From: Rozella allomycis CSF55
Taxonomy: Eukaryota
Length of the DNA: 52,017 bases
Direction of reading: 5' to 3'
Assembly: GCA_000442015.1 (NCBI GenBank)
Contig: KE561021.1
Location: forward strand, 1-52,017
Shown: positions 13,616 to 35,256 of the stretch, piece by piece
Layout of the letters: each line of letters begins with the position of its first letter
Position numbering within the stretch: position 1 is the stretch's first letter
Made by a program: the position numbers and the translations under genes
The notes under the pieces: model-generated
Database searches by the model: none
What the model saw: the letters and a program-made list of their open reading frames with translations, nothing else
Told to the model about the DNA's origin: nothing

Positions 13616-14447
13616 ATGAAATTCGGTTGCCTTCTTGCGTTTACTGCACTTGTTTTCGGTTCCAAGTACAAGCCAGTGGACACTCTGTTCAGTGCTGTCG
13701 AGCCAACTTTCGGTAATCCCGTATTTTACCGTGAAACAAGACAAACTATCTGAGCAATCTGTTTGGCACGGATGGAGAGAAAAGACTCTCGCTTTCGAAA
13801 AAGATTTTGATAAGCTGCATTTGAATAATCTCGAGGTTAAGGACATAGAAAGTCTTCAAACCTATTTCGAGTCCATCAGGACCCTATTCGATAAGAAGCT
13901 CGTTCCTGCAGTTGAAAATCACATCAACTCTATACTAGTTCCAACTTTAGGAAAATGTAAATAGTATTGCTTTTTTGGATTAGTTATCATGGTCTTGCTT
14001 GACGAATACGAAATGGACTTCAAAGTAACTCCTTTAACACAGCAAGAATATGACCGAATTTGCCTCTTGCTCTCCAAAAATCTCAAGAAAATCATAAATC
14101 TAACATCGCATCTTTATTTCGGCGCATCAGGCGTTGAAAGGCTGGCACACAAAGTTTCAATCGAATATGCCCAAAAGCATCTTCAAGTGCGCAGGAGCAT
14201 TCCAGTTTATATGAAATTGATGAAGAATGCAAGATTGAAGCGCCTTGGCTCCCAATGGCAACACGTCAGGGACTTTGAAAGCGCACTTGGAGAATTTAAA
14301 AACGCAATGGCCGCCTCCACGAGCCTATTTTCCAAGATTAATAGAATGAAAACAATGCCACACCATAATGTCAAAAGCATGGTTGACTTTCTTCAAAGTG
14401 TCAGGCAATCACTGGTCACTTTTCAAATGTTTATTTACTCGCTGTAA
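13616..14447 (+). CDS. Secreted helical family member 1 (single domain)
   Basis: Signal peptide MKFGCLLAFTALVFG. Two phase-1 introns (~13713-13740 and 13957-13983). Motifs WHGW, LVPAVENHI and C-terminal MVDFLQSVRQSLVTFQMF. Confidence 0.8.
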
Positions 14448-14569
14448 ATAAAATGACTATATAGAATAAATAGAATAAATAGAGTTAATATTAAATTTAT
14501 GCCCGATTTTTTTCGAAAATTAACAAAATTAATGGCATGTGTCGAGCTAATCCACAAGCCACCGGAAAA

Positions 14570-15546
14570 ATGAAATTACCAGGCTTCTTGAACGCTTTAT
14601 CTCTCCTGTTCTATACCTCCAAAATAGAGCAAGATGTGCGCCCGACTGAGCAAATCCAAGCCTTTCCGCCGACAAGTCACGAAATGTATCAGCCAAACGA
14701 CCAAATCTGGCTGGAGCCGCAAACATTTCAAGTCTACCGTAACTTGCTCTAATAATTCGTCAAATAGAAAACTTTGAGCAAGAATCGTTTGTAAATTTGT
14801 GGAAATCTGCGTTTTACGGGTTTGAAGAGTATTTGAAGCAAGGTGCTATTGGTTTTCCGGATCTTGCGCCTGACTTTGGGGATTTAGCTGCTGAATTTCG
14901 CGAGTATAGAGAGCTTGTTGGAACGATGAAAAAGCTGGTTGTTGAAGAGTCGGTGGATGTACTTGATAGACTTGATGGAAGTAAGGGGATTTTGATTGAT
15001 GGAGTAGCTATTGAAATCTTGCAACATCATCGCAATGAAAAGCTTCCGATGGGGCAAGCGTATTTTGAGGGTGAGCATTGGATAGCGAATAGATACATGG
15101 CAGTGATGGAGTTTGCTGCCGGAGGATTGAGAGGCATGGCTGAGAATAGTGTATTTCCTCAACTGTCAAAGTCTTTGAAGCAGCAAGCAATGTTGATTGT
15201 TAGAATAAAGTATCGTTTAGATGCATCAAAGGTAAAACTAATTAACATTGCTAATGTAAGGACAATAATGCTGGGTAAAAAAATAAAATTTTGTTTAGGT
15301 AGAAAAAGTGAGATGATTAATAATGTTATAGAAACTTTGAAACAAGTGGAAGAGATTCATAACATTGCGTATAAAGCATATGAAGAGACGATTGAAACAT
15401 TGAGCGTGCTGGCGGGAGATGAAAAGTTTGATTCAGCTGTTGACTTGTATAGCGTAGAGAAGATTGAATCTGCAATTGATATGCTTGCTGGTTTGAGAAG
15501 AGTTGTCGATACTTTTACCAACTTTGTCATTGCAATTACTGAATAA
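14570..15546 (+). CDS. Secreted helical family member 2 (single domain)
   Basis: MKLPGFLNALSLLF (weaker signal peptide). Intron 14739-14767 and a probable in-frame 27-nt phase-1 intron at 14981-15007. Motifs LWKSAF and C-terminal IDMLAGLRRVVDTFTNF. Confidence 0.75.
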
Positions 15547-15598
15547 AATAGACATTTTACTTCATTTAATTTATTTGAATAGATAATGATTTAAATAA

Positions 15599-15652
15599 GT
15601 TTATTTGAATTAGTTTATTTGAATTAGTTTATTTAAGTTAGTTTATTTGAAT
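15599..15652. repeat. 14-bp minisatellite (~4 copies, GTTTATTTGAATTA) overlapping the Nup133 stop codon
   Basis: gtttatttgaatta gtttatttgaatta gtttatttaagtta gtttatttgaat. Confidence 0.85.
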
Positions 15653-18600
15653 AGATCAGAAATGATGGTATTCTCAAACAAGTGCATAATTTGACTATTT
15701 TCATTTTCTAATACTTGAATAACATTTTCATGAAAATATTTTGAGAATAATTGAACATCCTTCTCTGACAAATAAATGTCAGTCAATATCATGTGACTTG
15801 AATTATCTAAGATTGAAATTGAATAAACAGATTACTTGAATTAAGAAAATTCATAGCTTTTAGAAGAGATGAATTATTTAAAATACTTTCTTTAGTTTCA
15901 TCAGAAGAATGAGAAATAGTTTTTGTAATTTCAGTCCAATTGTCAGCTAGAATGATTCTGCGCCATAATAGTTTTAAAAGAGATTCGAGTGATTCATCAG
16001 TTGTAGAATTCAACAAAGGAAAACATTCAAAAGATTTTTCAGAACAAGAAAGAAGATTAATTAGATCTACAAGGGTTATTTGTTTGTTATTTAAAAGATC
16101 TGAAATATTTTTTTCAAGAAAAGTATAATTTTTAAAAGATTTTAAAAGAAAATCATAGAGAATATTTTCAGTTGAATCTTTTTTAGATTTGAATAAAATT
16201 GAAAGATCATTTTGACAATTTACAAAATCTAATCTATTTTCATAATCTAAATAAAAAAATAGAATAAGAGGTACCTTTAATCTGAGAGTCTGGACAATCA
16301 AAAGAAAGAGATAATAATTTACTTAGAGAAATAAAAAATTTGCTTTCATTTAAATCTTTAAAAGATGAATTGATCTTTGAAAGTGCCATTGGAAAATTAT
16401 TTGTGTTGATAAAATGAATCCAGGAATGTGGAACTTGATCATTTTCTCTTAAATAATCATCCAAATAATGAGCATATTCATCTGAAATAGAATAAAGTTC
16501 AAACAATTTGTTATTAGAAAGATAAAAATCAAATAAAGAAAATGAAAATTGTTTTCCATAAATGTTTAAATATTCTTCAATAGATTTACAATTTAAATCA
16601 AAATTAAACCTTTGATTAATCATCAAATCAAAATAATGAAATTTCTCAAATATTTCAAATACTTTTTCTTGTCGATTGTATTTATTTAAAAAGAATAAAA
16701 TTCTCAAACACAATTCTTTATCTTTTACTATTGAACAACATTCCAAATAGTTTAAAAGAAATGAAATGCTATTCTTTAATAAAATAGATCTTAATTGAAC
16801 AAGAGATGTGGCGTATGCATTTGTCACGTGTTCAACATGTGAATTTTCTTCAATAACTTTAATTGATAGAAAAATAGATTCTAAAATATCCAAAATGTTT
16901 AATGAAATAGTTTTGAAATTTTGATTATTCCAAAATGATTCAAAATCTAATGGAATGTTTAATTTACTACAAAGATTTAATCTATGAGAAGAAATAGATT
17001 CAATTAGATTTGAAAAGATTAAAATAAATTCATTCAAGAGGGCAATCTGATCTGGCTCATTTAAACTACTTCTTCTAGTTGAAAATGAATTGAATAGAAT
17101 TGGCAAAAGATCATTTAAACTGCCAGTCATAAATCTAAAGAAATGGCGTGTTGAATCTCTTGACATTACAGATTTAGATTCTAATAAATTAAAAATAGAT
17201 TCTCCCAAGAAATTCAAATGAAAATCTTTAAATCCTTTTTCTTGCAAACTAAAAATAGAATTCTGAAATTTCCAAAGTTTCAAAGAAGCAAAAGAAATTT
17301 CTAAAGATTTTAAAATAATCAATTTAGATTCAATTGGCAATTCAAGCAATTTCAACAATTTTGAATATTTTTCTTCTAAAAGTAATCCAACCCCTGCAGC
17401 CAATGAAAATCTCTTACTTTTCGCTTCTAAAATCTGTTCACAAATTGATTCAACTGCCATTTCAATTTCTTCCTTTGAATATTCACAAATCGCAAAGTTT
17501 ATTCCATCAAACAAAAAACTTTCAATTTCATATTGCAATATTTCTATTGGAAGTTTCTTCACTTTAACTCCCCCAATATTCTTCAACGTTAAATTAAACG
17601 CTTTTCCTGTCGTCAACACCAAAATTGAAGACTTTGACGTAAAACTACAACAAGTCAAATTCCCCAACGAAAGTGGAATCGAAAAATCAAAATTACCAAA
17701 ATTTCCTTTTAAAAATAAAACTAAAATCTACCTGGCATCAAATTTATCAACGAAATTTGATTCAAAAATGAAACAAGCATCAACGGCTCCGTCGGGTGAA
17801 TTTCAATTCCAATAAAACTCTCAACATCCAACATCGCATTCAAACTATTACAACAAATAAACTTTATTTCTTCCTCCACCGCAAACGAAAACATTAAATA
17901 TTTCTCTTTAAAATAAATCAAAACGCCAAGAAACTCTCTAGACCCAGAAACACCCAAAATCGTAAATTCCAAACTGCCAATTTGCTTCTTCACAAGATTC
18001 GTTATATCAAAATCATTCTCAATCTTTTCACTCTCCATACTCCACTGCTGCAATATATTCCTCTCCTTTAACAAATACAATCTATTCTCAGTTCCACAAC
18101 TACAAACATTCATAAAACTACACCATCCACCAAACAATGACGTCACTTTCTGCAATACACCAGAATGTCCATCAACAACCCTGCACGCCAGTCCATGAAT
18201 CCCCTGCTCCTTCATCACAAATATCCTCTTATTAGACACATACACAAACACACCCTATCCCCACATAATTAATTCTTTACCCTCACAAAATGCAGTCCAA
18301 TTCCATATTCACTACTATCAAACCCCAAATCTATTCTCTGCGGCTTATCTAGCCAAAACACAGTCGGCCAATAAACCACACTCCCACTCTCAGTAGCAGC
18401 AACAACAGCCATCTGCTTCGCTTCCTTCCTGCTAGTGCTCAGCATACTCAACGGCTGCACATCGCTCTTCAGCCTCTTAAACGGAAAATGTCCCTATATT
18501 AACCCAACACGATCTTCTTACTCCCCACACAAACACAGTGTCGCCAGAAAGAGTAAACGATAGGCCTGTTGCTTGGTCGACTTGCACACAGTACGCTTCT

Positions 18601-18800
18601 ATCATACATCTCCAAGTATTTTCTTACCATCCTCAGACATGACCTCTACTAGTGTTTGCGGTAAATGGTTCAGCTCTTTTAAATGGAAATATGGATGATC
18701 TATTTCGCTACACTTGTAAAATGAGTAGCACTCTTACTTTTTGCCCAACATCATACCCCTGCCTTTAAAGGATTGAATAGTATTTGTGAATGAGAAAACA
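15643..18800 (-). CDS. NUP133: Nucleoporin Nup133, multi-exon (start approximate)
   Basis: Propeller-like N-terminus (VVAATESGSVVYW). C-terminal SWIHFI..FFISLSKL and LLWRRIILADNW are typical of Nup133. ORFs are joined by mini-introns. Confidence 0.8.
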
Positions 18801-19057
18801 TGAATCCATATTATTTCATTACGAATAACATTCGTTTAAAATATAGTAATTTAGTACCATGATAATGTGTTTGACTGAGATCAAAACAATCGCATAAAAT
18901 CAAAGTTTATTTGTGAATTTCTGCATTACAATACATACATACTAAAAAGTATATAGCATGAATCACTTAATGTTGGTTTCTCCAAGTTGCAAGACAGTGG
19001 CTTGGAACAGTTCAAAAAATNAGTTGCAGGACAGTGGCTTGGAACAGTTCAAAAAAT

Positions 19058-20514
19058 ATGACTTCAGAAATGCAAGAAATAATCGAAGGCCAAGCAAAAA
19101 TGACTCTAGAAAAATCAGTATTTTACAATCCAGTCCAAGAATTCAACAGAGACATAAGTATTGCTTGTATAACGCAATACCAAAAAACTCTGAACAAGGA
19201 CATCCACATCTTTGAAGGACTATCAGCTACCGGCCTGCGCTCCATTAGATACGCAAAGGAAATCCCAAACGTTTCCAAAATAACCACCAATGATCTCGAC
19301 AAGGATGCGTTCAAGACAATCCAGGAAAATGTTGTAAAGAATAACGTGCAAGATATCATTACGCCGTCGCTGAATGACGCTAATGTGGCCATGCTGCAGA
19401 ATAAGAATATGTTTGATGTCATCGATCTTGATCCGTATGGCTCGGTGATTCCGTTTGTCGATGCAGCTATCCAGTCTATCAAGAATGGGGGACTGCTTTG
19501 CGTCACTTGCACGGATATGACTGTGCTTGGTGGATCGTATTTGGAAACTAGCTATGCAAAGTACGGCGGGACAACACTCAAAGGCAAGTTCTGCCATGAA
19601 ATGGCTTTGCGTCTGGTTTTGCATGCGCTCGAGTCTTCCGCTACAAGATACAAGCGAGTTATCGTTCCTCTAATGTCATGCAGCATTGATTTCTACGTTC
19701 GAGTGTTTGTGATTGTCAAGGAATCGCCCAAAGACACTAAACTCTCCTGCACTAAAACTTCAATGGTAGGGCTCTGCAGTGGATGCCATTACTATCGCTT
19801 GCAGCCACTGGGTGTTGTTAACGAAAACAGAACGAAATTTAGCAACTCCAGATGCGTTCTTCCAAGCAAATGCACTTTTTGTGATTTTCCTTTGCATATT
19901 GGCGGCCCAATTTATTCAGCAGATATTCATAACCAAGAATTCGTTGTGAATCTATTAGATGCTCTGAAAGATGAATCATCGGCGCAAAGGTTTAAAACGC
20001 ATAAGAGAATGTTGGGAATGGTCTCTGTCATTTCGGAAGAGTTGAATCAACCACTTTACTATGACTTGTCGCAACTTTCCTCGACCATTAAAGTATCTAC
20101 AATTCCCGTTATGCTATTCAAGTAACTACGTTTTGTTTCTCTTATAGTTCTGCTTTGTTGAACGAGGGTTACAAAGTTTCTTCGACTCATTGCAGCAAAA
20201 CTGGGTTCAAAACAGACGCACCCATGGATTTAATTTGGTACGTTTTAAAATCATGGGTAAAAGATGTTACTTTAATAATAAAGGCATTAAAGCAACCGAA
20301 TTATGATATTAAAAAGTTTGAAGAACAAAAGTCATCTCCCGGAAAGAATATCATGAACTTCAATTTTATCTATGACTCGGAAGTTAATTTCGAGAAACAT
20401 GAACTTGCTAATCCATCCTCGAGAATTAAGGGTCTAACAAGGTATCAAATGAATCCAACAAAGAACTGGGGACCAGGAGCAAAACCAACTAAGAAACTTA
20501 AAAAAGATGAATAA
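19058..20514 (+). CDS. TRM1: tRNA (guanine26-N2)-dimethyltransferase
   Basis: VFYNPVQEFNRDIS, EGLSATGLRSIRYAKE, DVIDLDPYGS, GGLLCVTCTD, SIDFYVRVF, KTDAP and NWGP. Intron at ~20122-20147. Confidence 0.97.
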
Positions 20515-20942
20515 ATTGTAGTTTTTTTCAATCGTTTAGAATTTTTCTTGACTTGACTTTGTCACATTAAAAGTGATCTAAATTTTCTTTCTTGAGTCCA
20601 ATTATATGTACCCAAAACATAAAGACTGTTTAAAGGATTTATTTCGCAATATGCAGTAATAACCCAATATGAGCAATTTAAATTTAGATGGAGGAATCTT
20701 TGGCTTTCCTTAAAAGTATCGCGCATACAGTGTCCAATCTGCAAAATATTGAAACTAATGTGGTATATCACAGGCTCAGATTAAAAATTAGTTTCACATT
20801 AGCAAAAAGGAATGCATCCATGATTCTGAGAAGACTGGCATAAANATGACGGAAAGAAAGTAGCCAATAAAGATGACATAAATAGCAGGAAATTGGCTAC
20901 ATTAAGGTGCTTTAGAGCAACCAGGGCGTTGGAATTTTTAGT

Positions 20943-20964
20943 CACATGTGGATGGCTGCGCCAC
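20943..20964 (+). promoter_or_regulatory. CACATGTG + TGCGCCAC motif pair upstream of ATG 20977
   Basis: Same arrangement as 25631-25652. Confidence 0.5.
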
Positions 20965-20976
20965 TTAAGGAAAAAA

Positions 20977-22625
20977 ATGAGATTCCTAGCAATCCTATTT
21001 TTTATATGTCTTGTTGCGTCTGGCCCTTTAAACCTAAAAGGTTCCCATCATGATAATACTTTTAGATATCTTGAAAAGAACATCTTTTTATTGGATACAA
21101 CAAAATTTTGTAAGCACCTTTTGAGGTTTCAAAGTAGATGAACTTATGAGTAAACCGAACTGGAGAAACCTGAAATATGGGTTATACATTATGAATTCTA
21201 GACTTAAAAGTTTGGGAGTTCCTCGTGCACATCAGGAATTTTTTGATTTACTGGTTCCCTACGTTCAATGTTTCATGATCATGTGGGAAAAGGAATTGGT
21301 TCCTGCGGTCAATAATCATATTATTGGAAAAATGCAATATTGGCGTTTAAGTACTTTCTTTTTGTTGAATTCATTCAGATTTAGAATCAATGCAAGACGC
21401 CGAGGAATTAGAACGTCAAAATATATTCAAGGAAACAATCAAAAACATGACGATGGAAATTTCACCAGTGTTAGAAAGTCTTGACGAGTTTTTGATCGGC
21501 TTGGATAATATCAAGGATGTTTTAACCAAATGGAAGACTGAAGATGATTTAACGATCAGAGATCATGAAAATTTCATTCAAACCTCTAGTGCTGAAATAT
21601 TATTTCCCATAATTAAAAATGATATAAAAAAGGCTGAATATCATCGTGAAATACTTGATCGATATGTGAATATTTCAGAGTCCCTTATCAGCATTATTGA
21701 TAGTGCCTATATGACTCTTGAGAATCTTCCAAATCACTACGATCACTTCCTTTATGAAAATGAGTCTGAAAGGCATAATCAAATGGCCTTTTTAGAGCGA
21801 ATGATTAATACACTGGCAAATTTTCAGCATTTTGTACATTTTTTTAATGAACCGATGCTTAAAAAGACTGGTCTCAAAGATTTCCCTTCTTTTGGTAATA
21901 CTCACACTTAATCATAATTAGATTCGCTTTTGAATATGAGACATAAGGGATCATGGAAAAATTCTTTTGAGAATCTAGATAAAATTTCAAGAATTATAGA
22001 TTCTTCAGTTGGAAACACCTTCTTTCATACATTCTGTGAGTATTTGGAAAGATCATCGATTTCTATACTCGATGCCACTACATCTGGTAATTTGCATTAC
22101 TTTTCATGATAATTAGTATTGAAACAAGTACAGCCAGGGATGGTTATTGATTTGGAAGTTGTTGAGAAAATGGTATCCAAAACCGTTGAAAATTTGCATA
22201 AAGTGTCCAATCACATGAAATCAGGTTACGATCATACAGGCAAAATCCTGAATGATGCGTGTGAAACAATAGAGAAAATCGTGGCTGAAAAAACCGAGGC
22301 TAAGCCCGCCTTTTTTAAGAAACTTGCTTGTTATAGGGAGATATGCAATATTAGGAAACTCAAGATGGGAGAAAAAAGTTTATATTTTAAGAAACAAGAG
22401 TTGGATAATTTCATGACTCTTTCCACATGTCACCAACAATTTCCAGTGGCCCTTATTAGGGAACAAGTTCAGTATTTCCAAACTTCGATAGAGATGGCTA
22501 TTCAAAAATCAAAAACATTTCAATGGAAAAATCCAAAGCAAATGTTTAAGCTCCAAGAAGTCGTTGATTATGTAGTTAGCGCAGAACAAATTGCAAAAGC
22601 TTTGAAAAACCTAGTCACTGAATAA
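20977..22625 (+). CDS. Secreted helical family member 3 (two tandem domains)
   Basis: Signal peptide MRFLAILFFICLVASGP and four phase-1 mini-introns. Domain 1 has ELVPAVNNHI..WRL and MAFLERMINTLANFQHF. Domain 2 runs from SWKNSFENL to VVSAEQIAKALKNL. Confidence 0.8.
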
Positions 22626-22653
22626 ACTATTTAAAAAATATTTAATGATTTTA

Positions 22654-25302
22654 TTATAAAGTATTTAGTTTATTTTGAATGTTTGTTCTGATGGTAGAAT
22701 TAGTGGTGAGTTGAAAGAGGGATTCAAGAAGGTCTCTATTTTTGTGTTTGAATGCTAAATCAACAGAGTCTGATATGTATCCGGGATCATTAATGCAAAT
22801 TTTTAATATATTTTTTGCAAAGTGTGGAGTACGCAGTTTTGAGGAATAATGAAAGGCGAGATCGTAACGTTTGGCCCCCATGAGATCATTTACAGCACCC
22901 TAATCGAAGCATGGAATAATAATTACATGTTGAATGAATAAATTCTTAGATTTTGATTGAAGTAGAATTTCAAGTTCATCAAACTTTTGAAATTTTATAA
23001 AGTAGCTAACTTTAATCCTTTGAAACCTAAATAATACGAAAGAATTGAATTTACCTTTTATCATCAACGTTAAAATCATTCTTTAAACGATTAGCTCTTG
23101 AATGAAGACCCATTTCAAACAACTTGACTAATGTGTCGTGTAATGAAAGACCTACAATGGAGGCATGGTTGAAATCAGCATCGATCTGATTTTGAAATAA
23201 TAATAATTTAATAAAATTGTTTATAATCTTTGTTTGAAATGAAATCGACTTGTCTTGGCGAATTATGGAAAGGGCGGACTTTAATTTTGCTATTCTTTCT
23301 TTAACTTCGGCACAATTATAAGATTCTTCTATTAATAACATTGCGCTATTCCATCTTTGATCGTCTTGATAGTAATAATCCTTTAGCAAGTCATAATCCG
23401 TCTCTTTGTAAAAGTTCTCAAGTAATCTTCCAGCAAGTGGCAAGGAGTTAATGATATTTAAAAAATTTGATAGAGAATTGTTAATTTTTGCGTGGAATAT
23501 CACCAAATATATAAGATCTGCGTCTAGACTATTCAATGCTTTTTCAAGGGCTAATTTATCTTTATTCATTGATAAAAGTAATGGTATTTGTTCACAGAGA
23601 TTGCTTTCGTGATCAAGAAGCAAAACTGCCAAATTTACCTTCCCTTTGCTAAATGCGATTTTAGCGATTTCAGAGTATGAAATTCCAGAAAGCGGAGTTT
23701 GACTTAATTTGGAAACAATTGTATTATAAACTTGATGATCCTCGTCATTACAATTTATTTTCTGACAAGCCCAATCCATTACAATTTTATCGACTGGATG
23801 TTTTATGAATTGAGAAATTTTGATAGCCATCAAATGAAGATTTCTTTCAATTAATCTTTCAATGATGTTTCCAAACCCACAACTATCGTACTGAGTAAAA
23901 GTCATAAACATTCCAACATCTTCGTTTCTTAAATTGTGTAAAATTCTTATAACTTGACAAGCTTTTACAAACTTTGAATGATTGTATGTTTCTAAATATG
24001 ATTTTCCAAAGGAAGCAGACTTTAGAAGCTTTGCTTGTGAGTCAACGTCCATGTCATGGAGAGCTGCTTCAATGCATTCATCAACTGCTTCTGTCAAATT
24101 TGGAAGTATCGTTCTAATTATTTCATCTGTTTTGCCTAACTGTTTTTCAAAGTTTTCATACGCATCACAAAGCAAAGCGCTCGGCTTAGTTGAACCTGGC
24201 TTTAATACATTGATAATAGAATCTGGAATTTTCTTTATCATATGACAGGATAAAGAATCAATTAATACTATCGAATCTAATTGATGCATTAAAAATGACT
24301 TTTCATCTAACGAAAATCATATTATGAATCAAATGAAATGTTTACTTGATAAAATTGCCAGTTGGGCCAATCAGATAAAAATAATCGTCCCAGGAAATAA
24401 CAACTGCATCAGAGCCACACCTTTATATTCTAAAGTATTTTTTAACATACCACATCATCTGATTAGGAAAATTATCGTATTCAACTTCAACTGACATTAC
24501 TTCATTAAACGACATATCATACACAATAAGCATCTTTTTCATATCCAATGCAGCTATAAGGTTATTATCAGATGACACGCAAAGAAAGCCAAAACTTTTA
24601 TTCGAAATAGTTATGTTCCCTTTATCGGTTAATCCTAATCTAATCATTCTCTCTTGGCATGCTATTAACACATCTGGAACATGGTTCTCTTCAATTAAAC
24701 ACCACGAATGCGGGTATTCAAATAGATCAGTATTGCAATATACGGTTGGGATCCGGCTATTGAACTCCATTAATATAAACTTGTAATCTCTGGTCATTGC
24801 AACCAACCCATATTTATAGAATTTGCACTCTAATATTCCTGCTTCTTTTGCCTCTTTGCCAAGTGAGAATATGTCATGATTATTTCTCAAATCAATCATG
24901 TGCACAAATCCGGATTCAATTACCACCACAAGAACATCCAATAAAGTCCAGTTCATTGACACAATTTTTGAATGATCATTCCACTTTGAAAAAAAACTTG
25001 AAAGCAATACCTGAACTTGATGTAATAGCCTTCCACTCATGTTATAGATTATGATGTCCGTCTTTAAGGATTTATTTTTGATGCCTAAATGGTTCTTTTC
25101 ATTCCTAATAACGGCTTATTAATTAAATTGTACGCGATTACCGATAGGACCACCATTTTTTGCAACAGAGAGATGAACATTTTGCAAACTGTCAATATTC
25201 CAATCCATGTGATATAAAAATGTCTTTTAAATTAATTGAATAAAATTTTAAGCGTACTTTGTGGTAATATTGATCATCCAAGACCTTCCAATCAAAAAGC
25301 AT
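22654..25302 (-). CDS. VPS16: Vacuolar protein sorting 16 (HOPS/CORVET core), multi-exon
   Basis: MLFDWKVLDDQYYHK, GGPI, AVDECIEAA..QAKLLKSASFGK, WACQKI, GISYSEIAKIA, EQIPLLLSM, DADLIYLV and DYYYQDD. Confidence 0.95.
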
Positions 25303-25630
25303 GATTTTTGAGAAATATAGATTTCAAAATTTCTGATTGGAATCATTGAAGAAACATCAGGATTCTTTGAAAAACGACATCAAAAAGGACCACAATAAAT
25401 CGGTTGCGAACAATCAGGCGTTATAAAGTATAAAGTACTTTCAATCTCAATTTTAAATAGGNCGATAGCGAAGAAAACATTATAGAGAAAATCCACTGTT
25501 GGCAAAATATTCAGAACTAATTATTTATAAGACAAACCTAAAGAAAAAAGATAAGTTTGAAAGAGATTATTAATTTTAGATGTTGAATTTTGAAATATTT
25601 TGGAGGAAGTGGCCTTAATCTTAACCTTGT

Positions 25631-25652
25631 CACATGTGCTTGTGTAAGCCAC
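25631..25652 (+). promoter_or_regulatory. CACATGTG + AAGCCAC motif pair upstream of ATG 25663
   Basis: Same spacing between the two motifs as in the 20977 promoter. Confidence 0.5.
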
Positions 25653-25662
25653 TGAGAAAAAA

Positions 25663-26404
25663 ATGAAAGTAGCGATTATAATATTATTTTTCCTTTCTTT
25701 TATACTTTCTGCTCCCCTAGAGTTTTATGAAAAGCAATGGGAAACGAATTTATTTAAGTTCTGTAACACATATGCTATACCCAAAAGTAGATAATATTGC
25801 CGATGATGCAAAATGGATAAAGTGGAAAAATGACTTTAATAACATGGAAAAAGCCTTGGAAAACAATGGAATCTGTTCATTGTATGAAGATAAATGTTTA
25901 GAGTTAATGGATAATGTGGAATTGTATAGAAAAGCATTTCAGAATGTTCTTATGAAAGTCATAGAGACGCGTTTAATTAAATCGAATAGACATAAACTTT
26001 GGTATTCTAGTAAGATTTTTCTTTTTGATGAAAGAAGCGATTGAAAAATTGAATGATAAGAGTGCACCAGAAGATTTGTGCACCACTCGCGCTTCTTACA
26101 ATAAACTCATGAAAAGTATGTCAAAACCATTAAATTTACTCGCTGAAGCATTGAAGACAGTTGGTCATTTTATGACCGAGATCGAAGAATCCACATTGAA
26201 GATCCAACATGATTTGAGTGTAGCGATTGAAAATCAAGAAAAAGAATCAAATGAAGATGATAAAAGCACATTGAAAGACTTGGAAGATAAATGGAATTTG
26301 ATGATTGAATATCAATTGCAGATTTCGGATTACATCGAATTAATTCATAGCGCCGAATTTATTTTAAGAGATGTTGCACGTCGCCAAGATTATGAAGAAA
26401 ATAA
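25663..26404 (+). CDS. Secreted helical family member 4, 5' part (split by scaffold joins)
   Basis: Signal peptide MKVAIIILFFLSFILSAP, two phase-1 introns and KWIKWKNDF. Ends at N26405 in ELIHSAEFILRDVARRQDYEEN, which recurs after N28608. Confidence 0.75.
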
Positions 26405-26405
26405 N

Positions 26406-28458
26406 GAGTCAATCCAGTGGTAACGATCAAATTAAACAACGCAATATTATCCTCCTTGAGACTAAGGATTTCATTCTTAAATATATACCAGTTCAAGTAA
26501 TATTTTCTTAAATTATATGATCGAGAGCAACGACATTGGCCAGCTAGTAATCGGCTCATTGCGTTTAAGGTTGTATTTGCGTTCTCTGGCTTTTTAGCTT
26601 CATTAAATATAATAGAAGCAGATATATCAAAAGAAAAACATTGAGATATTAAATGTTTAGTGCCAAGATAGTTTGCCAGAGGTGGATGAAGAATGGAAGG
26701 ATCTTTGTGAGCACATCTTTGCAGAGCTTCGTAATTCTCAGAGGAAAAAATATATAAAAATACTACTCCATTCTCAACATAGTAACAACCTGATAGCATT
26801 CTTCTTGATAACTCTACATTTCTAGTTTGCACCACGAGGCGCTCTAAACCTTCCAGGATCTTCTTGTCCTTTAGTGAAATGAAAAAATCTAATTCACGGA
26901 GACTTGGGTTTATTTGGTTTTCAATCATGAAATCGATTGCCAAGGCGTAATATTTTTGCTCCCAAAGAATATCTAAAATAGCGGTTAAATCGATTTGAGG
27001 GTTATAATTATAGCTATTTCTGGAAATCCCGATAGTGTATTCATTAAACTTTTTCCAATCTTCAACACTGGGAAATTTTGACACAAAAATTGAACTTTTC
27101 CATTTCAGAAAATTATGAATTGAAACGATGACATTCAAAACACCCTGATCAAACTTCATCTCGGTTGGAATATTAATCGCCTTTTTATTAATAAAAAATT
27201 TAATTGAATTTTTTCTCTCAAGTGAAAACTCAAAGTGTTTTGCAAGGGTCAACGCAAAGTCATACTTTTCGTCCCTCAATGCCAACTCAAGTTCATATTT
27301 GGCACTTTGGTAAACTAATGGTTCGTATTTATGGTTGTCTGTAGAATCAAAAACTTCTCTTATTGCTTTGATCCAATTCATCCCTTGATTCACTGGAAAC
27401 CTCTTAATGGCTTTTAAAACATCTTTCTTTCCCAGATAATGAAACGATCGATCGCAAAGAAAATTTAAAAGTTCAGAATCTTTCTCTTTAAATGCATTTT
27501 CAAGTAACAGTTTTAAACAAATAGATCCACATTGTACAATCTGAGATAAGATCTTGGGTTCTCCAAGTTTAACAACAGGAATAGCCTCTTTTCTCTTGAT
27601 AAACAATTCTTTCAAAGCCAAATGCATATTTTGGTGTGTCGCTAGAACATCGAACCAGTAAACAACTCTAGATTTGTCGACTGAAGAAAACACTCCAGAG
27701 CTTGCCAAACGAGCAAAGAAATCTGTATGATTTATTTTACAATCAGCAGCGAGATCCCATTTGTTCATTATTTTCACCACCAATTCAAATATATTCTTCT
27801 TCAAGGCTTCCATTAAAAATTCAACATCTTTTAAAGGAGTTCCAAATGGTTTAAAGTTGTTTATCATCTCTATTTTATAGTCATTGTATCCATTAACATC
27901 AAATATCATCGCTTCAACTACCAATCTTTTTCCTGTCGTTAATGCGTAATTGTATACATTCGTAACGTAGTATTTTGCATCTCTCAGTAAATACTTTAGC
28001 ACATATATCAATTGCTTTTCTATAGCGTCAATCAACACCTCTTCAAATCCTAGCCCTTTCGGGCTAATTACATGTTGGAAAAAATTGTCGCACATGACTT
28101 TGCTAGTTTCCAAATCGCCAAATTCATAGTCTACGAAAGGATCTGTTGGAATAATCTTTCTTGACTTGGAAAGTGCTTCGTTGCAAATGTCCAGGGGATC
28201 TACATTGTACTTGTTGAAATAATCATAATATTCAGTTTCATGACCCGATTTTCCATATTTTATGATAGACTCAAAAAGCCTAATAATATCAGCACTACTT
28301 TTTCTTTTGAAAGCATATTCCACCATCTCACGGTCAGATAACAATGTTTCTAGCGTTGAATACAGAAGCTTGCTGTCAGGCGTATATTGAGTATTAGTGC
28401 AAAGAATAATATTGAGTGTAAAAACACAAAACAGCACCAGGCGTGTTACGATCCACAT
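26406..28458 (-). CDS. Intronless secreted protein of unknown function (>680 aa, 3' end cut by N)
   Basis: Long ORF with hydrophobic N-terminus MWIVTRLVLFCVFTLNIILC. No recognised domain. The apparent stop lies across an N join. Confidence 0.75.
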
Positions 28459-28544
28459 TTACCAGGGATATAACATGTGCAGAAAGAAAATTGTTCGATG
28501 GATTATGTTAATCTTTGAGTAACATTTGTAAATAAGTATACTAT

Positions 28545-28607
28545 GGGCTCATAGCTCAGTTGGTAGAGCGCACGCTTTGCATGTGTGAGGTCCCGTGTTC
28601 AAACCCC
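28545..28607 (+). tRNA. tRNA-Ala(TGC), 3' end truncated by N (possibly a pseudogene)
   Basis: GGGCTCA-TA-GCTC AGTTGGTA GAGC-G-CACGC TTTGCAT GTGTG-AGGTC-CCGTG TTCAAAC CC.. The T-stem appears to contain a mismatch. Confidence 0.75.
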
Positions 28608-28608
28608 N

Positions 28609-29660
28609 GTTGAATTAATTCAAAGTGCTGAATTTATTTTAAGAGATGTTGCACGTCGCCAAGATTATGAAGAAAATAATATTGATTTTATTAACGAAAT
28701 ATACATCGCTATGACGCGGATTATAAAGTTTTTCGAATTTTGGAATTCCCCAATTAATGAAACTGAATCCAATGAAATCATCAAAAATGACATTTTCATT
28801 AAAAATTATGTATATTTTAGTAATAGATTTTTCTGTTTACAATAAAGGTCAAATTCAACATGCTAAGAATGTTAATAACTGGACACGAAGATTCGATAAT
28901 GTTGAAGATTCATTGGCACAAATACAAATAGAAAATATCGATTATAGAGAATTATTTCAAGCTTATAGAAACTTCAGGGGCGTTCAGATTAATAATTTTA
29001 GAAAATCTTTCAATGATGAATCTGATAAAATCTCAAACACAATCTCTGCAGGTAACTGGATATACTTTATAACATGTAGCCCTCTATGATTATATTAATT
29101 TAAAAGAAAATAATATGGTTGATTATTTCAACATTGATTTCTCCAACCTAACAATCTCTCTTAATGAAATCTGTAAAAAATTGGAGAGTTTGCTTGATTC
29201 TTTAGCAACCATGATGACTTACAATAAGGTTGCTTATGGAAAAGATTTGAAAAATAGACTTGAAGAACTAAACGAAGCCAACATCAAAGCTAAAATGGAA
29301 TATAAAGACGATGGCAAAAAGAAGTCAAAGTTTAAAAATATTTCCAAGTTTATCGACAAATTAAAAAACAAGAAGAAAAAACCAATCGATATTACAAAGT
29401 CAATAGATGAACAAATTGTTCAAATTGAAATAAATGATTTGACTGCCAAAATAGAATCCACTAACAAAGGCTTTTATCATATAGAACAATTTCTCAAAGA
29501 CTTAATGGGTTTGTTAAATGATGTGGTCTTGAGCTTTAAGGATGCTTTACAGCATGGTAACAACATTGCCAATCTTAACGCTGACGATAAAGCCCTTCTT
29601 CTCGCCTGTGTTAAGAAGAATGTCTTGGTTCTGAAATACTTTATAAACTCAATAAACTAA
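28609..29660 (+). CDS. Secreted helical family member 4, 3' part (end of domain 1 plus domain 2)
   Basis: Overlaps the end of the 25663 gene in sequence. Two more phase-1 introns, NNWTRRFDNV, a Lys-rich segment and C-terminal LLACVKKNVLVLKYFINSIN. Confidence 0.75.
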
Positions 29661-29734
29661 ATTAGATATTATTTTTATAGTCACATTTTATAGGCGCAAG
29701 CAAAAATTCTACCCTGGTAGATCCGCGAAAAAAA

Positions 29735-30654
29735 ATGAATTGGAAAATTACCACCCTCTTATTCACACTGGCGGTTTCTTTGGTGACTGGTACGGTATAC
29801 ACCCCGAATGAGGATCTTTTCTTGACTCAGAGTAACTCAACTTAAATTTGTACAACTAGTCGATCTCACTGACGAAGGCAGAATAATGCGCTGGAAAATG
29901 GATTTTGATGTCATCAATCAGTTCTTTGAACCACATCCAAGCCCTGACTTTCCAACTTCTGATCAGGAAAATGTTGTTCACCATTTTTTCGGTGACCTTC
30001 TAGATTATATCCATTCAAATTCACGAGCCCTAGAAACGATTGATCACAGTATTTTTATTCATGTATTTATATGTAGCGTTGTTGGACATCAAAACTTTTC
30101 TAGAAGCCAATAGCGATATCGACATGGAACTGAGGCAAAAATGTCGGTTTTCTTCAGCAATTATCATTTCTTTCTTGCACGGATTTGATTTGGAATTCGA
30201 TAAGATTCTTAATGATTTCCAGGATTTGCAAGATTCTATTATAGAAGCCCGAAACATAGAAGGTGCTGAATACGTTCACCTGCTAGAAAAGATTTGCGCC
30301 AAAAGAAATAACAAAGCTTCCTGCATGAAAAAATTGAAAGGCTTTATTAACTCTCTTCTTAATAAACGCAAAGTAATACATGAAAACACTGTACTATACT
30401 TGTCAGTGAATGAAATGAAAGAGATAAAGGATATTGAAAATAATAGAAAAAATTTAGATCGCTTTGAAAATGTTTGTAAAGAATTCATACAAGTGATTGA
30501 AATGATCGGCTTTAGACTCAATGAATCTACTACTTATTGGACTATTAATATAACACTAGATACATTAAATGACCTGCATGTCTATATGGATTTTCTGGCG
30601 AGTGTTAGAAAAATGGTGAACACTCTTGAGGGCTTTATTAATAGAATAAATTAA
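29735..30654 (+). CDS. Secreted helical family member 5 (single domain)
   Basis: Signal peptide MNWKITTLLFTLAVSLVTG. Introns at 29832-29859 and 30049-30076 (28 nt, phase 1). Motifs MRWKMDF and C-terminal MDFLASVRKMVNTLEGFINRIN. Confidence 0.8.
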
Positions 30655-30899
30655 ACTTTAACATTTCTTTATCAAACACGTATTAGATTCATAGTTTTTA
30701 TCGAGATGAATTGAGTTTTTTATAACACACTCCTTTTAAGGGATGGCGAGTTTTACATGTTCTTGCCACTTAAGAAATCCAACATCACCCATAGTAGTTG
30801 TATTTATAGCATAAACTTAATTTATGCTATAATGAAGGACCGTGGGAATGCATTGCCAAAACAATCTTATCCCATTCGTCTGACCAAGCCACACAAAAA

Positions 30900-32604
30900 A
30901 TGTGGATCCCTGCAATTTGTGTTTTCATATGTTTTGTTGTTTCAAGCCCCGTGCAAGAGACCCAAAAGGAAATTTTTGATTTCGATAACTTTCTTGGACA
31001 GTGCAACAGTATTTCTGCAAGTAACTAGCTGTCTTTTTATGCATCAGATCTTGCCGACCATCACAAGTGGAACCAGTGGAGATCAAATCTTTGTCCTCTA
31101 CCAATGGTTATAAGTTCAACCATAAAGCTTCCACTTAGAGATGCTGATATTGTCTCGGAACACGTTGCCGGACTTATCAACATGATCGAACAGGACTTGG
31201 TGCCAGTTGTAGATGAGAACATCACTAAAAACTTACAGGAATGGAGACTTGGTAACTAATTTTCAAGTCGATAAATAGCTGCTGCAAAGTTGAGAAGCGA
31301 AAGGGACGCTGTCAAGCAGACTCAGATTTTCGCAGAGACAATTAAAAGTTTGAAAGAACACCTGTCTCCAGTTCTTGAAAAGCTCGAATATATCTCCAAC
31401 CAAAGACAAGAGACTAACAAAGTCATGGAGAGATTTGAAAGAGACATGCACGCCAAGTACATTGATGATGCTAAAAAGGCAACCGCTCCAAAGACCCGTT
31501 TTGACATTGAAAGTTTGTTTCTTCAGCCTACTCTTGACGAAAGTATGATTTATTCAATGTGTTGATAAGATGATGAACGTAGAGTAAGCAAATTGCTGAG
31601 CTATACAGAAACTGATGTCGAAGATAATGAAAACCACTTTTTAAGTGAAATTCACAAAGAAGATGATGAAAACCTATTTGTAAGTGAAAGACACAAAAAG
31701 AATACACTCTTTTTGCGTGATTTAAATGAAAGAACTTTTATACTCTACGAGATTACTGATGAGGCATCTGTTATTTTTGCTGAATTGTGTAAAACCGTAA
31801 TTGAATTCGATAACAATCAACAACGTGTTGCTTTCCTTGATAGGGTTCATCAATTGACTGCCGATGTTCAAAAGTTTGCGTATTTTGCAAGTCAGCCGCA
31901 ACTCATGCCGGGAAGAGATGATTTGTATTTGCGAGGTACAGAGTTTGGTAAAATTTATAATTTTTGCGACATAGAAAAGCTTGAGGATCCACTAGTCATG
32001 GAAGAATGGCGTTTAAAAGTGAAGAAGATTGAAAGATTTGTGAAAAGACTCGACGATGAATCTTCTATTATAGACTTCAACTCTTTCACTGCTTATAAGG
32101 AGAACATGAGAATTATTATCAGGGAGCTTTATGAAGATTTTGAATTCGGTAATTAAATTAACCATTCTTGTAATTCCAGATAAAGTATCTATCAACAAAT
32201 TAAAATTAAATCTTCGTGTCTTTAGAAAAATAAACTTTAGAACAAAGAGTTGCAAAATAGCGGACCATTTAAAAGACATTGCTTCAACCACCTTTAATAT
32301 GAAATGGAATTCACGGCTAAAAGATCGTTATTTGGAAATGCGATACAATGAAAGTAAATTTGGAAAGTTAAAAAGAAAATTGTTGCGTGGAACTCAAAAA
32401 GAAGAAGAATCTTTGGATGACATTAAACGATACATCAAAGAGTATGCAGATCTTATTATTACTGTTTTCAATAAGGCTGGAAATCAGCATGGTAAACCTG
32501 TTGGAGATGAGATTGAGGTGAATTTCTTGCAAAGACATCTTGATCAATTGAAAAGTGCTGAAAGAATTACAAAGATTTTCAAAGACCTGTTATTTCCGCA
32601 ATAA
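30900..32604 (+). CDS. Secreted helical family member 6 (two tandem domains)
   Basis: Signal peptide MWIPAICVFICFVVSSP. Motifs KWNQWR, DLVPVVDENI..WRL, LSPVLEKL and VAFLDRVHQLTADVQKF. Ends LKSAERITKIFKDL. Several phase-1 introns. Closest relative is the 20977 gene. Confidence 0.8.
31620..31697 (+). repeat. 39-bp coding tandem duplication
   Basis: EDNENHFLSEIHK / EDDENLFVSERHK. Confidence 0.85.
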
Positions 32605-32680
32605 AAATACTTGATCGTTATTTTTTACTTGTTGTGCTTAAATTTTTTATCTTACATTTTAACTACATTTCGTGAAGAAA

Positions 32681-32708
32681 CACGTGTACAAAGTACTCTA
32701 CCAGCCAC
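32681..32708 (+). promoter_or_regulatory. CACGTG + CAGCCAC upstream of ATG 32721
   Basis: Recurrent motif pair. Confidence 0.5.
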
Positions 32709-32720
32709 CAATATTAAGCA

Positions 32721-33805
32721 ATGTTTTTCATACTTTTCCAGTTTCTCCTTTTACAAATCATTTGTGCACCAAAAAGAGAGCGTAGTATTAACAATGGAAT
32801 CATATCTTCAATATTTCCAGGCTATGGTAAGATTTCCAGTGTATTGTCACAGAAAACGTATTAACGCCACAAAGAATGTTGGTTCAAAAAGAATCTCTGA
32901 AACAAGTGCAGAGTGATCTAAACTTTAAGTTGATTAGAGGACGTGTTTCTAACATAGTGATGGTTGCACGTGTGATGCATATGGAGATTAGACTGAAGCA
33001 ACTGTTAGAAAAGATAGATGGGTTATGGAGTATGGGAAGCGACAAGCTGACTATCAGTGTGAATAATCTTGAGAATAGTAAGTGTTTAATCGGTGTGATA
33101 TTAGTTGTGGACGATATGAAAAATCATTACTATTATGGAGAGATATCTGCAAAAAATATGCAGAATACTTTTAACGAGCTTTTTTTAATGATGAGGGAGC
33201 ATTTGAATGATTTGTTTAATGAGATTGTAGTGATTAGGGCGAATGCGAGAAAATTGAAGACGAATATGGTTGATGTTGTAGAGTATTTGGAGAAGAGTGT
33301 GTCGAGGAATATGGAGAAGAAGAGGATTGTGGTTAAAAAGGAAAAGAGGAGGAGTGTTGTAGTGAATAAGGAGAAAAAGAGTTTGAAGAGTCGAATGACT
33401 GTTATGAGTTTAATGAATAAAGTTTTTAGGAAAAAGAAGAGAGAGAACAACAGAGAATTTTTGGAAGAAAATAACGAGTTGACAATAGATGAAAAACGAG
33501 AGTTGGAATCGGAAGAAAGACGAGAGTTGGAATCGGATGAAAATCGAGAAGAAATTGACGGTTCCAATAAGAGCAAAAATGAGACTATAGACAATGAAGT
33601 CTTAAAAGAAATAGAAGCAATTAAAACAGGAATTGAAACTTTAAAGGAATTTGTGTGGTATCTTGGCTATATAATTAAAGTGTTAATCAATGTGATAGAT
33701 GATTGGATATATTTTGTCGATGTAGAAAGAGGTGCATGGGCGATGGACGTGATGGCTAGCATGAAATTTATGTTACAAAATATATTCACTTCAATTCAAC
33801 TATAA
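32721..33805 (+). CDS. Secreted helical family member 7 (tandem paralog of the 34245 gene)
   Basis: Signal peptide MFFILFQFLLLQIICAP. A 26-nt intron plus an in-frame 27-nt intron, both phase 1. C-terminal MDVMASMKFMLQNIFTSIQL. Confidence 0.8.
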
Positions 33806-34187
33806 AGCGATTCATAGAATTACGAAAATAACAAAATCTATTAAGAATTTGAAAAGAAAGCAATAATAAATATGTTATTACAACTCGAACCCTCCACTTT
33901 AATAATTGGCTATTTTGTTTTCGATTTGCCTAATCTATTCAATGATGAATTTACATCAGAAGATTACCATAAAGAATAAATTCCATGGCAGACCAAGACC
34001 CCTGAAACTCTGTGTACAGTACTGGATTGTGCGCGCGCCTCTGCTGTAGCGCCTTGAGCAATATACTCCTTTCAGATTGTCATGCCTGTTGTTTCCAATA
34101 AGACTTTTGATATTCATATTACGAATAAAGGCAATAAAAATACTTGACTTGATCTTATAAACATTTAAACTAGTTTTCCTCAATAAA

Positions 34188-34229
34188 CACGTGTGGCACT
34201 CGCCTTGACAATGTGCTCCACCAAGCCAC
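34188..34229 (+). promoter_or_regulatory. CACGTG + AAGCCAC upstream of ATG 34245
   Basis: Recurrent motif pair. Confidence 0.5.
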
Positions 34230-34244
34230 CCAAAAAGATAGAAA

Positions 34245-35256
34245 ATGTTTTTCATACTTTTCGCTTTCCTCCTTTTGCAAATCCTGTGTACTCCCAACAG
34301 CGAGCATACCATAAACAACGCTTTAATATCATCAATATTTACAAACTATGGTAAGATATCTGGTGTGAATTTACAGAAAATGTGTTATCGCCACAGCGAA
34401 TGTTGGTTCAAAAAGAGTCTCTGAAAAATTTGCAGAGTGATCTGAATTTCAAGTCGATTAGAGGCCATGTGTCGAGTATAGTGATGGTATCGCGTGTTGT
34501 GCAAACGGAGATTGGATTGAAGCAGCTGTTGGATAAGATGGATGCGATGTGGAGTATAGGAAGTTCCAAGCTGACGATAAGTGTGCTTAATCTTGAGAAT
34601 AGTAAATGGTTGATGAGTGTGAGACACTAGTTGCGGATGCTATGAAAAATCATTATTATTATGGAGATGTTTCTGTCAAGGAAGTGGATGACACGTTTAT
34701 AGAGTTTTTTGGGATGACGAGGGACCATTTGAATGATCTGGCGAGTGAGATTGTAGAGGTTAGGACGAGTGCGAGTAGATTGAAGAAGAATATGGTTAGT
34801 GTTGTGGAGGATTTGGAGAAGAGTTTGTCTGGGAATAAGGAGAAGAGTAGTTTTAAGGGGCTTGTGGATAAAATGAGTGCAATGAGGTTGATGGATAGAT
34901 GTTTTAAAAAGAAGCATGAGAGTAGAGATGTGGCTAGAGAGTTTATGGAAAATAATGGTGGGCTGACAATGCGCGAATATAACGAGTTGGCTTTAGATGA
35001 AAATAGTGGTTCTAAAAACAAGAAGAATAAGAGTATAAATAATGAAGGGGTTTTGAAAGAAATAGAAGCGATGAAAACAGGGATTCAAACTATAAATGAA
35101 TTTGCCGAGTATCTTGGTTATATAGTTAGAGTGTTGACTAATGTGATTGATGACTGGATAGATTTTTTTAATCTAGAGGATGTTGAGTTGATGATTGATG
35201 TGATGGCTAGTATGAAATTTATGCTACAAAAGATATTCACATCACTTCAACTATAA
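34245..35256 (+). CDS. Secreted helical family member 8 (tandem paralog of the 32721 gene)
   Basis: Signal peptide MFFILFAFLLLQILCTP, the same two intron positions, and near-colinear protein (MKNHYYYG, VIDDWI, DVMASMKFMLQ). Confidence 0.82.

Follow-up and report, generated by a model that had tools for sequence, protein, structure and literature searches.

The window analysed was the whole 52-kb contig KE561021.1 (52,017 nucleotides, nt) of Rozella allomycis CSF55, an obligate intracellular parasite that lives in the water mould Allomyces. On its plus strand it was found to contain eight genes, designated here g1 to g8, which are likely to form one family and which encode predicted helical proteins with signal-peptide-like N-termini. 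A preliminary description of this DNA, made from its letters only, had proposed a candidate family of secreted helical proteins from a likely parasite, and the parasitic origin is borne out by the organism itself.

The gene models and their splices were predicted from the sequence and were built by hand and by script. One sequencing run compared with the window gave just three records, which matched over 17-26 nt and thus carried nothing on splicing or expression. Each gene was found to begin with an ATG followed by a hydrophobic stretch, at the starts listed in Table 1, and the removal of GT..AG introns of 25-31 nt yielded open frames of 235-530 codons, all on the plus strand. The eight plus-strand genes described earlier were reproduced in this way at the same starts, with the exception that the span 25663-29660, which had been taken as one gene, was found not to be intact; a 2.2-kb insertion interrupts the gene that starts at 25663.

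All 21 modelled introns were found to be in phase 1, to measure 25-31 nt and to lie at equivalent positions. In g3, g4 and g6 this pattern occurs a second time in the latter half of the gene, so that the eight genes provide 11 units, the units of the two-domain genes being marked by the suffixes a and b. The first intron was preceded by an aromatic residue (F or Y) in nine of these 11 units (g1, g2, g3a, g3b, g4a, g4b, g6b, g7 and g8), followed by the presence of an exon of 55-75 amino acids (aa) and then of a second phase-1 intron, which was found in every unit except g2. A mechanical scan of both strands for GTA[AT]..AG stretches, 24-32 nt long and joining two open frames, recovered 19 distinct donors in the family, all of them in phase 1. 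The same scan recovered 33 other candidates in the window, 23 in phase 0, five in phase 1 and five in phase 2 (Fisher 5.6e-10 for the phase-1 excess of the family); these 33 include one candidate inside g6 that was not modelled, one antisense to Vps16 and some that may be spurious. Since the other candidates were mostly in phase 0, the phase-1/phase-1 module is a trait of the family and not of the genome, and the gene architecture is the strongest evidence for the family.

The module that recurs 11 times was found to consist of an aromatic residue, an intron, a W-motif exon of the length given above, a second intron and a long exon ending in a helix-loop-helix. The 11 domain copies counted in the preliminary description were recovered, with two each in g3, g4 and g6. 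The W motifs WHGW, LWKSAF, KWIKWKNDF, MRWKMDF and KWNQW that it had quoted were all found in place, 5-10 aa past intron 1, the exceptions being g7 and g8, which contain no W motif. The second domains were found to contain the W-type motifs SWKNSF, NWTRRF and EEWRLKV. The sequence LVPAV or LVPVV was present ahead of intron 2 in g1, g3 and g6, matching the three genes for which an LVPxV motif had been claimed, followed by the presence of a C-terminal D-F-L-x-S-V...F-type helix at the end of each gene or domain, again as first described. The gene g1 contains all three elements in the forms VWHGW, LVPAV and C-terminal MVDFLQSV..F. A conserved block [ND]-x-[ILA]-[FWYI] was found 8-14 residues ahead of intron 1 and recurs in the linkers that lead to the second domains. 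The gene g6 contains, at 31948-31974 and just ahead of its second W motif, an in-frame GTAAAA..ATAG stretch of 27 nt that is by its sequence a probable additional phase-1 intron and would supply the missing 'intron 1' of the second domain.

Table 1. Coordinates of the family genes, the insertion in g4 and the upstream sites (positions are those of the window)
Feature	Position	Strand	Description
g1	13616..14447	+	258 aa, one domain; introns 13713-13740, 13957-13983, both phase 1
g2	14570..15546	+	315 aa in this model; intron 14739-14767, phase 1
g3	20977..22625	+	511 aa, two domains; introns 21110-21137, 21351-21378, 21895-21921, 22087-22116, all phase 1
g4a	25663..26423	+	5' part of the interrupted two-domain gene, 235 codons; introns 25763-25790, 26010-26034, phase 1
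g4b	28609..29660	+	3' part of g4, 331 codons; introns 28820-28847, 29052-29079, phase 1
g5	29735..30654	+	287 aa, one domain; introns 29832-29859, 30049-30076, phase 1
g6	30900..32604	+	530 aa, two domains; introns 31021-31047, 31252-31278, 31543-31569, 32149-32179, all phase 1
g7	32721..33805	+	343 aa; introns 32827-32852, 33078-33104, phase 1
g8	34245..35256	+	318 aa; introns 34351-34376, 34602-34630, phase 1
Insertion splitting g4	26405..28611		2.2 kb
Direct repeats flanking the insertion	26337-26404, 28612-28679		68 nt each, g4 coding sequence, 96% identical
Intronless open reading frame in the insertion	28458 down to 26359	-	699 codons; hydrophobic, signal-peptide-like N-terminus
tRNA-Ala(TGC) gene	28546-28617		right edge of the insertion
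Three E-box-like CACRTG sites	13562..13595	+	26-54 nt upstream of the g1 ATG
Single CACRTG sites	14536 (g2), 20943 (g3), 25631 (g4a), 32681 (g7), 34188 (g8)	+	upstream of the genes

The upstream regions were found to contain CACGTG or CACATG (together CACRTG) within 80 nt of the ATG in six of the eight genes, g5 and g6 being without the box. The eight 80-nt upstream stretches contained eight CACRTG sites against 0.34 expected from the 28 sites of the window (Poisson 3.6e-9), and the shared box suggests co-regulation. The longer arrangement CAYRTG-N(5-70)-[AC]GCCAC was found at six places in the window, five of which end 12-21 nt before the ATG of g2, g3, g4a, g7 and g8. The nucleotides GCCAC were present 12-28 nt upstream of the ATG in seven of the eight family genes; as a family-specific motif they were rejected, because they also precede a Ras-like GTPase gene and a kinase gene. 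The same element, often as AAGCCAC(C), was observed 8-28 nt upstream of many starts inside and outside the family (43563, 49985-49997, 14558, 25648, 30888, 32704 and 34225), and from its distribution it probably belongs to the core promoters or start sites of this genome in general.

Signal peptides were assessed by a hydropathy heuristic and by reading of the sequence. All eight N-termini, which had previously been noted as hydrophobic, were signal-peptide-like by the heuristic, seven of them strongly, with Kyte-Doolittle (KD) 10-residue mean maxima of 2.66-3.45, and that of g2 weakly. The hydrophobic cores of about 11-14 residues were followed by G, S, A or T and then by Pro or a polar residue (e.g. 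..VASG/P, ..ILSA/P, ..VVSS/P and ..IICA/P), and for this reason the N-termini look like signal-peptidase sites. No further transmembrane segment was found in any mature part (19-residue windows, KD above 1.6), and the C-termini do not carry the K/HDEL signal for retention in the endoplasmic reticulum (ER). The features of classical secreted proteins, namely an h-region of 7-15 residues, small residues at the cleavage site and no further transmembrane segment, were all found on reading the sequences. The mature parts contained 0-6 cysteines and few Pro and Gly residues, with Lys-rich central stretches in several members. Under a strict form of the heuristic, 21 of the 256 first-Met open reading frames (ORFs) of the window scored as signal-peptide-like.

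The AlphaFold model of the public protein in which g4b is fused to g5 was found to be all-helical (mean predicted local distance difference test score, pLDDT, 49.8; predicted template modelling score, pTM, 0.24), as was that of the g7 ORF (mean pLDDT 49.4, pTM 0.35). The helical nature proposed from the letters is therefore seen in two models of low confidence (pLDDT 49-50). The three modelled units (g4b, g5 and g7) each contained a helix of 44-50 residues, then a loop of 5-9 and lastly a terminal helix of 19-30 residues, and this terminal helix-loop-helix agrees with the aligned C-terminal block.

Searches for known domains and relatives agreed with the earlier statement that no known domain could be recognised. 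With 12 exon translations searched at E<=1, no Pfam family reached its curated cut-off (best 18.1 bits against a cut-off of 27.8), and the best hit of the sequence-profile search of the PDB had an E of 0.061. A Foldseek comparison of a low-confidence model with the PDB gave no match at E<=0.001 (best E 0.43). VIA-align retrieved only generic helical bundles (MukF, the STAT coiled coil, syntaxin, FlgN and parts of the exocyst) at Z<=12.9, the noise level for helical models being about 13. The best feature scores in the ESM Atlas were 0.89 for g2 (SctW/HrpJ) and 0.80 for g5, both below the lead level of 0.9, and the structural neighbours there were generic coiled-coil hairpins. A profile of the C-terminal exons was searched against 1.84 billion representative proteins and found six at E<=0.001. 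All six come from two assemblies of R. allomycis CSF55 and represent this locus or its allelic or assembly variants, and no homologue outside R. allomycis was found at that threshold. A word-index homologue search retrieved for g2 its own GenBank entry only and for g1 nothing. In the literature searched, which did not extend to the genome paper and its supplements, no secreted effector family was found for Rozella and these locus tags were not mentioned.

The spliced junctions were found to contain no mismatch with the public models wherever the two overlap. The differences consisted of alternative intron choices, N-terminal truncations and one fusion. The model of g2 corresponds to GenBank O9G_003465 (294 aa), which is essentially complete and from which two more small in-frame introns are removed near 15231-15310. 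The models O9G_003468 (g3, 366 aa), O9G_003473 (g6, 458 aa) and O9G_003474 (g8, 247 aa) each start at an internal Met; that of g3 is without the signal-peptide exon and exon 2, that of g6 without the signal peptide and the first W motif, and that of g8 without the signal peptide. The model O9G_003472 (627 aa) joins g4b to g5, its g5 part being identical to the present model. No public protein was retrieved for g1, even though its exon was part of the search profile, and g1 is therefore probably unannotated; g7 is probably unannotated on this contig, since the tags O9G_003473 (g6) and O9G_003474 (g8) are consecutive. The label 'hidden family' used in the preliminary description was fair, as the public models truncate, fuse or miss several members. 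With three models lacking the signal peptide, one fusion, and g1 and g7 apparently missing, secretome surveys based on these models would therefore miss most members.

A second public assembly under the same strain label was observed to contain family proteins differing from the window at about 0.3-1.5% of residues (1/294, 5/347, 4/458 and 3/247). A separate contig of 1,432 nt was observed to contain a variant of the g7 tail (3 of 80 residues different) adjoining an identical g8 head. The comparison covers the family proteins, and its differences suggest allelic variation or duplicated assembly pieces.

Pairwise similarity between the members was found to be uneven. By BLASTP, g3 and g6 matched at 8.9e-11 (30% over 159 aa), g7 and g8 were 57% identical, and the remaining pairs gave E values of at least 0.004 in a tiny database. 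By Smith-Waterman alignment, five of the 55 pairs of units beat all 200 window-shuffled controls, and significant similarity was confined to these five (z of 4.1 for g1-g3a, 3.3 for g2-g3a, 6.0 for g3a-g5, 9.7 for g3a-g6a and 37 for g7-g8). Each unit was also compared by phmmer with the 1,066 six-frame ORFs of the window, the g7-g8 pair and the g4 repeat being excluded from the count. Ten of the 12 non-self matches with E<0.05 fell on other family members at colinear positions, including a reciprocal match of g2 and g8 in two colinear segments (E 0.03-0.04), the other two being with an ORF in antisense (E 0.0017) and one on the minus strand (0.019).

Profiles built with one member left out were then ranked among about 1,050 six-frame non-member ORFs. 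A module-wise form of this test was adopted because noise in the whole-domain hidden Markov model gave low scores even to g3a and g6a, whose relationship is clear. With exon 2, eight of the 11 units reached ranks of 1, 1, 1, 2, 2, 7, 9 and 11; with the C-terminal 75 residues, six of the 11 reached ranks of 1, 1, 1, 2, 3 and 4, g8 being at rank 1. Only g7 failed to rank 11th or better in one module or the other, and it shares 57% identity with g8. In six of the 11 units the whole-domain profiles scored above all 300 shuffles. As judged from sequence, kinship is solid only among g1, g3, g5 and g6 and between g7 and g8; the remaining members appear to be linked weakly, through colinear matches of low score, leave-one-out ranks, gene structure and the upstream CACRTG box.

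A minus-strand gene at about 15.65-18.6 kb was the recurrent best non-member match and was considered as a ninth member. It was rejected, its translation containing neither a signal peptide nor the family motifs; a CACRTG..GCCAC pair was found inside its ORF.

The pair g7 and g8 was found to have a synonymous divergence (dS) of 0.66 and a nonsynonymous divergence (dN) of 0.23, giving a dN/dS of 0.34 with block values of 0.17-0.67. On this ratio they are constrained coding genes that evolve fast, with no detectable positive selection. The earlier characterisation of the family as rapidly diverging is thus borne out only in part, the selection acting on this pair being relaxed purifying, not positive, selection.

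The reading favoured here, with modest confidence, is that the eight genes are tandem paralogues with 11 domain copies, specific to Rozella allomycis, whose products are secreted and belong to the parasite-host interface. The family would have expanded as genes were duplicated locally and as a module of three parts was duplicated within them. The first part would be the short N-terminal D/N-x-hydrophobic-aromatic motif with its aromatic residue at a phase-1 intron; the second, the exon of 55-75 aa opening with a W..W/F helix and closed by another phase-1 intron; and the third, the long helical exon with a helix of roughly 45-50 residues, a short loop and an amphipathic terminal helix. With a short, presumably cleavable signal peptide and no other membrane segment, the proteins would be expected to pass into the ER and out of the cell. 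Rozella is wall-less as it grows inside the cytoplasm of its host, and secreted proteins should for that reason reach the parasite-host interface or the host itself. The inferred course would comprise signal-peptide cleavage, secretion, folding into a helical bundle, delivery to the host and effector activity. Elongated helical bundles would most plausibly bind host proteins or membranes, or serve as adaptors to them, and the common CACRTG box would co-regulate six of the genes. A host-binding or effector role was considered the most likely function, and it is held with clearly less than even confidence. A bolder form of this reading was judged rather unlikely as a whole: the genes would be the first effector family directed at a host that can be recognised in Rozellomycota, which are the sister group of microsporidia, with a new elongated helical fold made from a duplicating phase-1/phase-1 exon module, a basic helix-loop-helix (bHLH)-type CACRTG regulon active in infection, and release from the wall-less parasite into the Allomyces cytoplasm. 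If true, it would represent exon-shuffling-style modular evolution in a tiny-intron genome.

Several results weigh against the favoured reading. The N-terminus of g2 is only weakly hydrophobic (KD 1.79), and both AlphaFold models are of a confidence too low for fold assignment or fold comparison. The leave-one-out profiles failed for g5 (rank 193), g8 (159) and g7 (69) with exon 2, and for g7 (641), g6b (57), the g4 tail (56), g6a (20) and g3b (15) with the C-terminal residues; with whole domains, shuffles did as well in 29 of 300 cases for g3a, 109 of 300 for g6a, 12 of 300 for g6b, 144 of 300 for g7 and 1 of 300 for g3b. A spurious antisense ORF scored like true members in the phmmer comparison (E 0.0017), and single weak phmmer matches are therefore untrustworthy. 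Profile-profile alignment, which the preliminary description had named as a check on membership, was non-significant between the four subgroups (core, second domains, g7/g8 and g2), with hhalign probabilities of 0.2-2.9% and P values of 0.015-0.32; these values nevertheless beat the reversed controls (0.2-0.82).

It is conceivable, and was judged unlikely, that the family is real and secreted and that it serves the parasite's own structures, such as the wall of the zoospore cyst or germ tube, the resting-spore wall, the sporangial matrix or the cargo of secretory vesicles, with no manipulation of the host. Signal-peptide-like N-termini without other transmembrane segments would be expected of such proteins as well, and so would the purifying selection on g7 and g8, while a common promoter box would fit a programme of developmental stages. 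Helical, Lys/Glu-rich and cysteine-poor proteins suit a matrix or coat as well as an effector role. Wall proteins, however, are often conserved among relatives, yet no relative was found among the 1.84 billion representatives, and a paralogue divergence so extreme that most pairs stand at noise level is more typical of host-facing families, as these are portrayed for microsporidia in Reinke et al. 2017 (PMC5423893).

The non-significant alignments between subgroups could also mean that two or three unrelated sets of helical orphans are present, one consisting of g1, g3, g5 and g6 (perhaps with g2 and g4), another of g7 and g8, with unrelated C-terminal extensions in g3, g4 and g6, and that only generic features are shared. 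This was considered improbable. The low number of pairs that beat all shuffles, the missing W motif of g7 and g8 and their poor exon-2 ranks are in its favour. A bias towards phase 1 is also known for introns that directly follow signal peptides. The uniform phase of all 21 introns, first and later ones alike, with the second intron 55-75 aa on in ten of the 11 units, speaks against it, only five of the 33 other candidates being in phase 1, and the second domains repeat the full pattern of aromatic residue, intron and W motif. The first rank of g8 in the C-terminal test and the reciprocal g2-g8 match in two colinear segments tie the sets to each other. All genes lie on the same strand in one neighbourhood, and g7 and g8 share the upstream arrangement of CACGTG plus AGCCAC with g2, g3 and g4. 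A single family was accordingly held to be quite probable, the membership of g7, g8 and the three second domains drawing mainly on architecture, with weak colinear matches and promoter motifs beside it.

That the N-terminal segments are uncleaved signal anchors, tethering a helical coat to the parasite plasma membrane so that it faces the host cytoplasm, would agree with the single hydrophobic segment at the extreme N-terminus and with the host-exposed membrane-tethered families that occur beside secreted ones in microsporidia, according to passages of PMC5423893, but it is very improbable, as the cores of about 11-14 residues followed by small and then Pro or polar residues appear to resemble a cleavage site and not an anchor of at least 19 residues.

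The insertion in g4 was found between two direct repeats of g4 coding sequence (Table 1). The frame of g4a stops five codons into the insertion, and the open codons of g4b comprise the tail of domain 1 and the whole second domain, without a start codon or signal peptide of their own. The long minus-strand ORF of the insertion was found to match no Pfam family and, by word-index search, no homologue. In the transfer RNA (tRNA) gene, the 3' acceptor strand was by eye unpaired with the 5' end and looks replaced at the junction. A mobile or captured piece of DNA would explain the insertion, and so would an error of assembly.

The window is AT-rich, with a GC content of 26-42% per 2 kb, and was found to contain the housekeeping genes TRM1 (E 2.8e-114), Vps16, a Nup133/155-type nucleoporin, an aldehyde dehydrogenase and two protein kinases, which are interrupted by tiny GTAA..TAG introns of 28-39 nt. 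The claim of a local expansion among housekeeping genes is consistent with these surroundings, TRM1, Vps16 and the Nup155-like nucleoporin being neighbours of the family. Isolated single N letters, 21 in number, were observed scattered over the whole window. The two kinase genes lie in tandem on the plus strand at 48546-49859 and 50005-51192 (Pkinase, E about 1e-20), and both were observed to contain signal-peptide-like hydrophobic N-termini followed by the presence of a common ..(H/A)(L/I)PRC.. motif; from these N-termini the kinases may be secreted or membrane-bound. A minus-strand gene at 39984-41738 was observed to contain a C-terminal FtsX-like permease domain (E 1.2e-11), a domain that is mostly bacterial and uncommon in fungal-lineage genomes.

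Among known systems, the ClyA/HBL/Nhe toxins and the BAR bundles resemble the Rozella proteins in the long antiparallel helices predicted by the low-confidence models. For alpha-pore-forming toxins, no Pfam or PDB profile match was found, and the ESM Atlas score of 0.77 for a cluster with 19% Bacillus_HBL members is at noise level. For BAR domains, the BAR domain of BIN2 gave an E of 0.14 in the PDB profile search, and F-BAR and endophilin gave Foldseek E values of 6.7-8 on a low-confidence model. All these values are non-significant, and neither fold finds support in the searches made, the structural ones having used low-confidence models.

The WY/LWY-domain RxLR effectors of oomycetes are secreted proteins built of small tandem helical modules with W and other aromatic residues, and they diverge extremely fast. 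The Rozella proteins are likewise tandem helical modules marked by W and aromatic residues, which is an analogy and not membership; in contrast to the oomycete effectors, their modules measure about 210-330 aa, they contain no RxLR-like motif and no RxLR or WY match in Pfam at E<=1, and they come from another lineage.

The PHIST/PRESAN families of Plasmodium are exported, lineage-specific and all-helical, with conserved tryptophans and a signal exon followed by an intron. The Rozella family shares with them its restriction to a lineage, its predicted all-helical nature, its tryptophan marks and a first exon that encodes the signal sequence, again by analogy and not by membership. Unlike PHIST/PRESAN, it has no Pfam match at curated thresholds and no recognised export motif, and its conserved N-terminal motif looks structural rather than targeting, because it recurs before internal domains.

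Within the lineage that connects fungi with microsporidia, Rozella has been studied best, and the corrected models provide a candidate set of proteins for the parasite-host interface together with a candidate co-regulation motif. The locus also illustrates clearly how domains can be duplicated by way of symmetric phase-1 exons. The family is new, unannotated or misannotated, and of a known kind, a lineage-specific cluster of secreted paralogues being the expected kind of thing in a parasite. The closest described kind is that of the species-specific, signal-peptide-bearing and locally duplicated large gene families of microsporidia.

These large gene families, for example NemLGF1 and NemLGF5 of Nematocida, are described in passages of Reinke et al. 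2017 (PMC5423893) as species- or genus-specific, as bearing signal peptides, as often adjacent in the genome and probably derived from local duplication, and as having many members that were experimentally host-exposed in Nematocida; the definition given there is of at least ten homologous members in one species. The Rozella genes, by contrast, number eight within this contig and the protein databases, have no detectable sequence in common with the microsporidian families, and are rich in introns, their phase-1 module being repeated and some members having two domains. In Nematocida exposure to the host was established by experiment; in the Rozella family it is a prediction from sequence. The clade-specificity of the microsporidian families was found here as well, all six proteins with E<=0.001 coming from R. 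allomycis CSF55. Like the microsporidian families, the Rozella paralogues are adjacent genes of one species that bear predicted signal peptides and no known domain, and Rozella, like microsporidia, is obligately intracellular and is a close relative of them.

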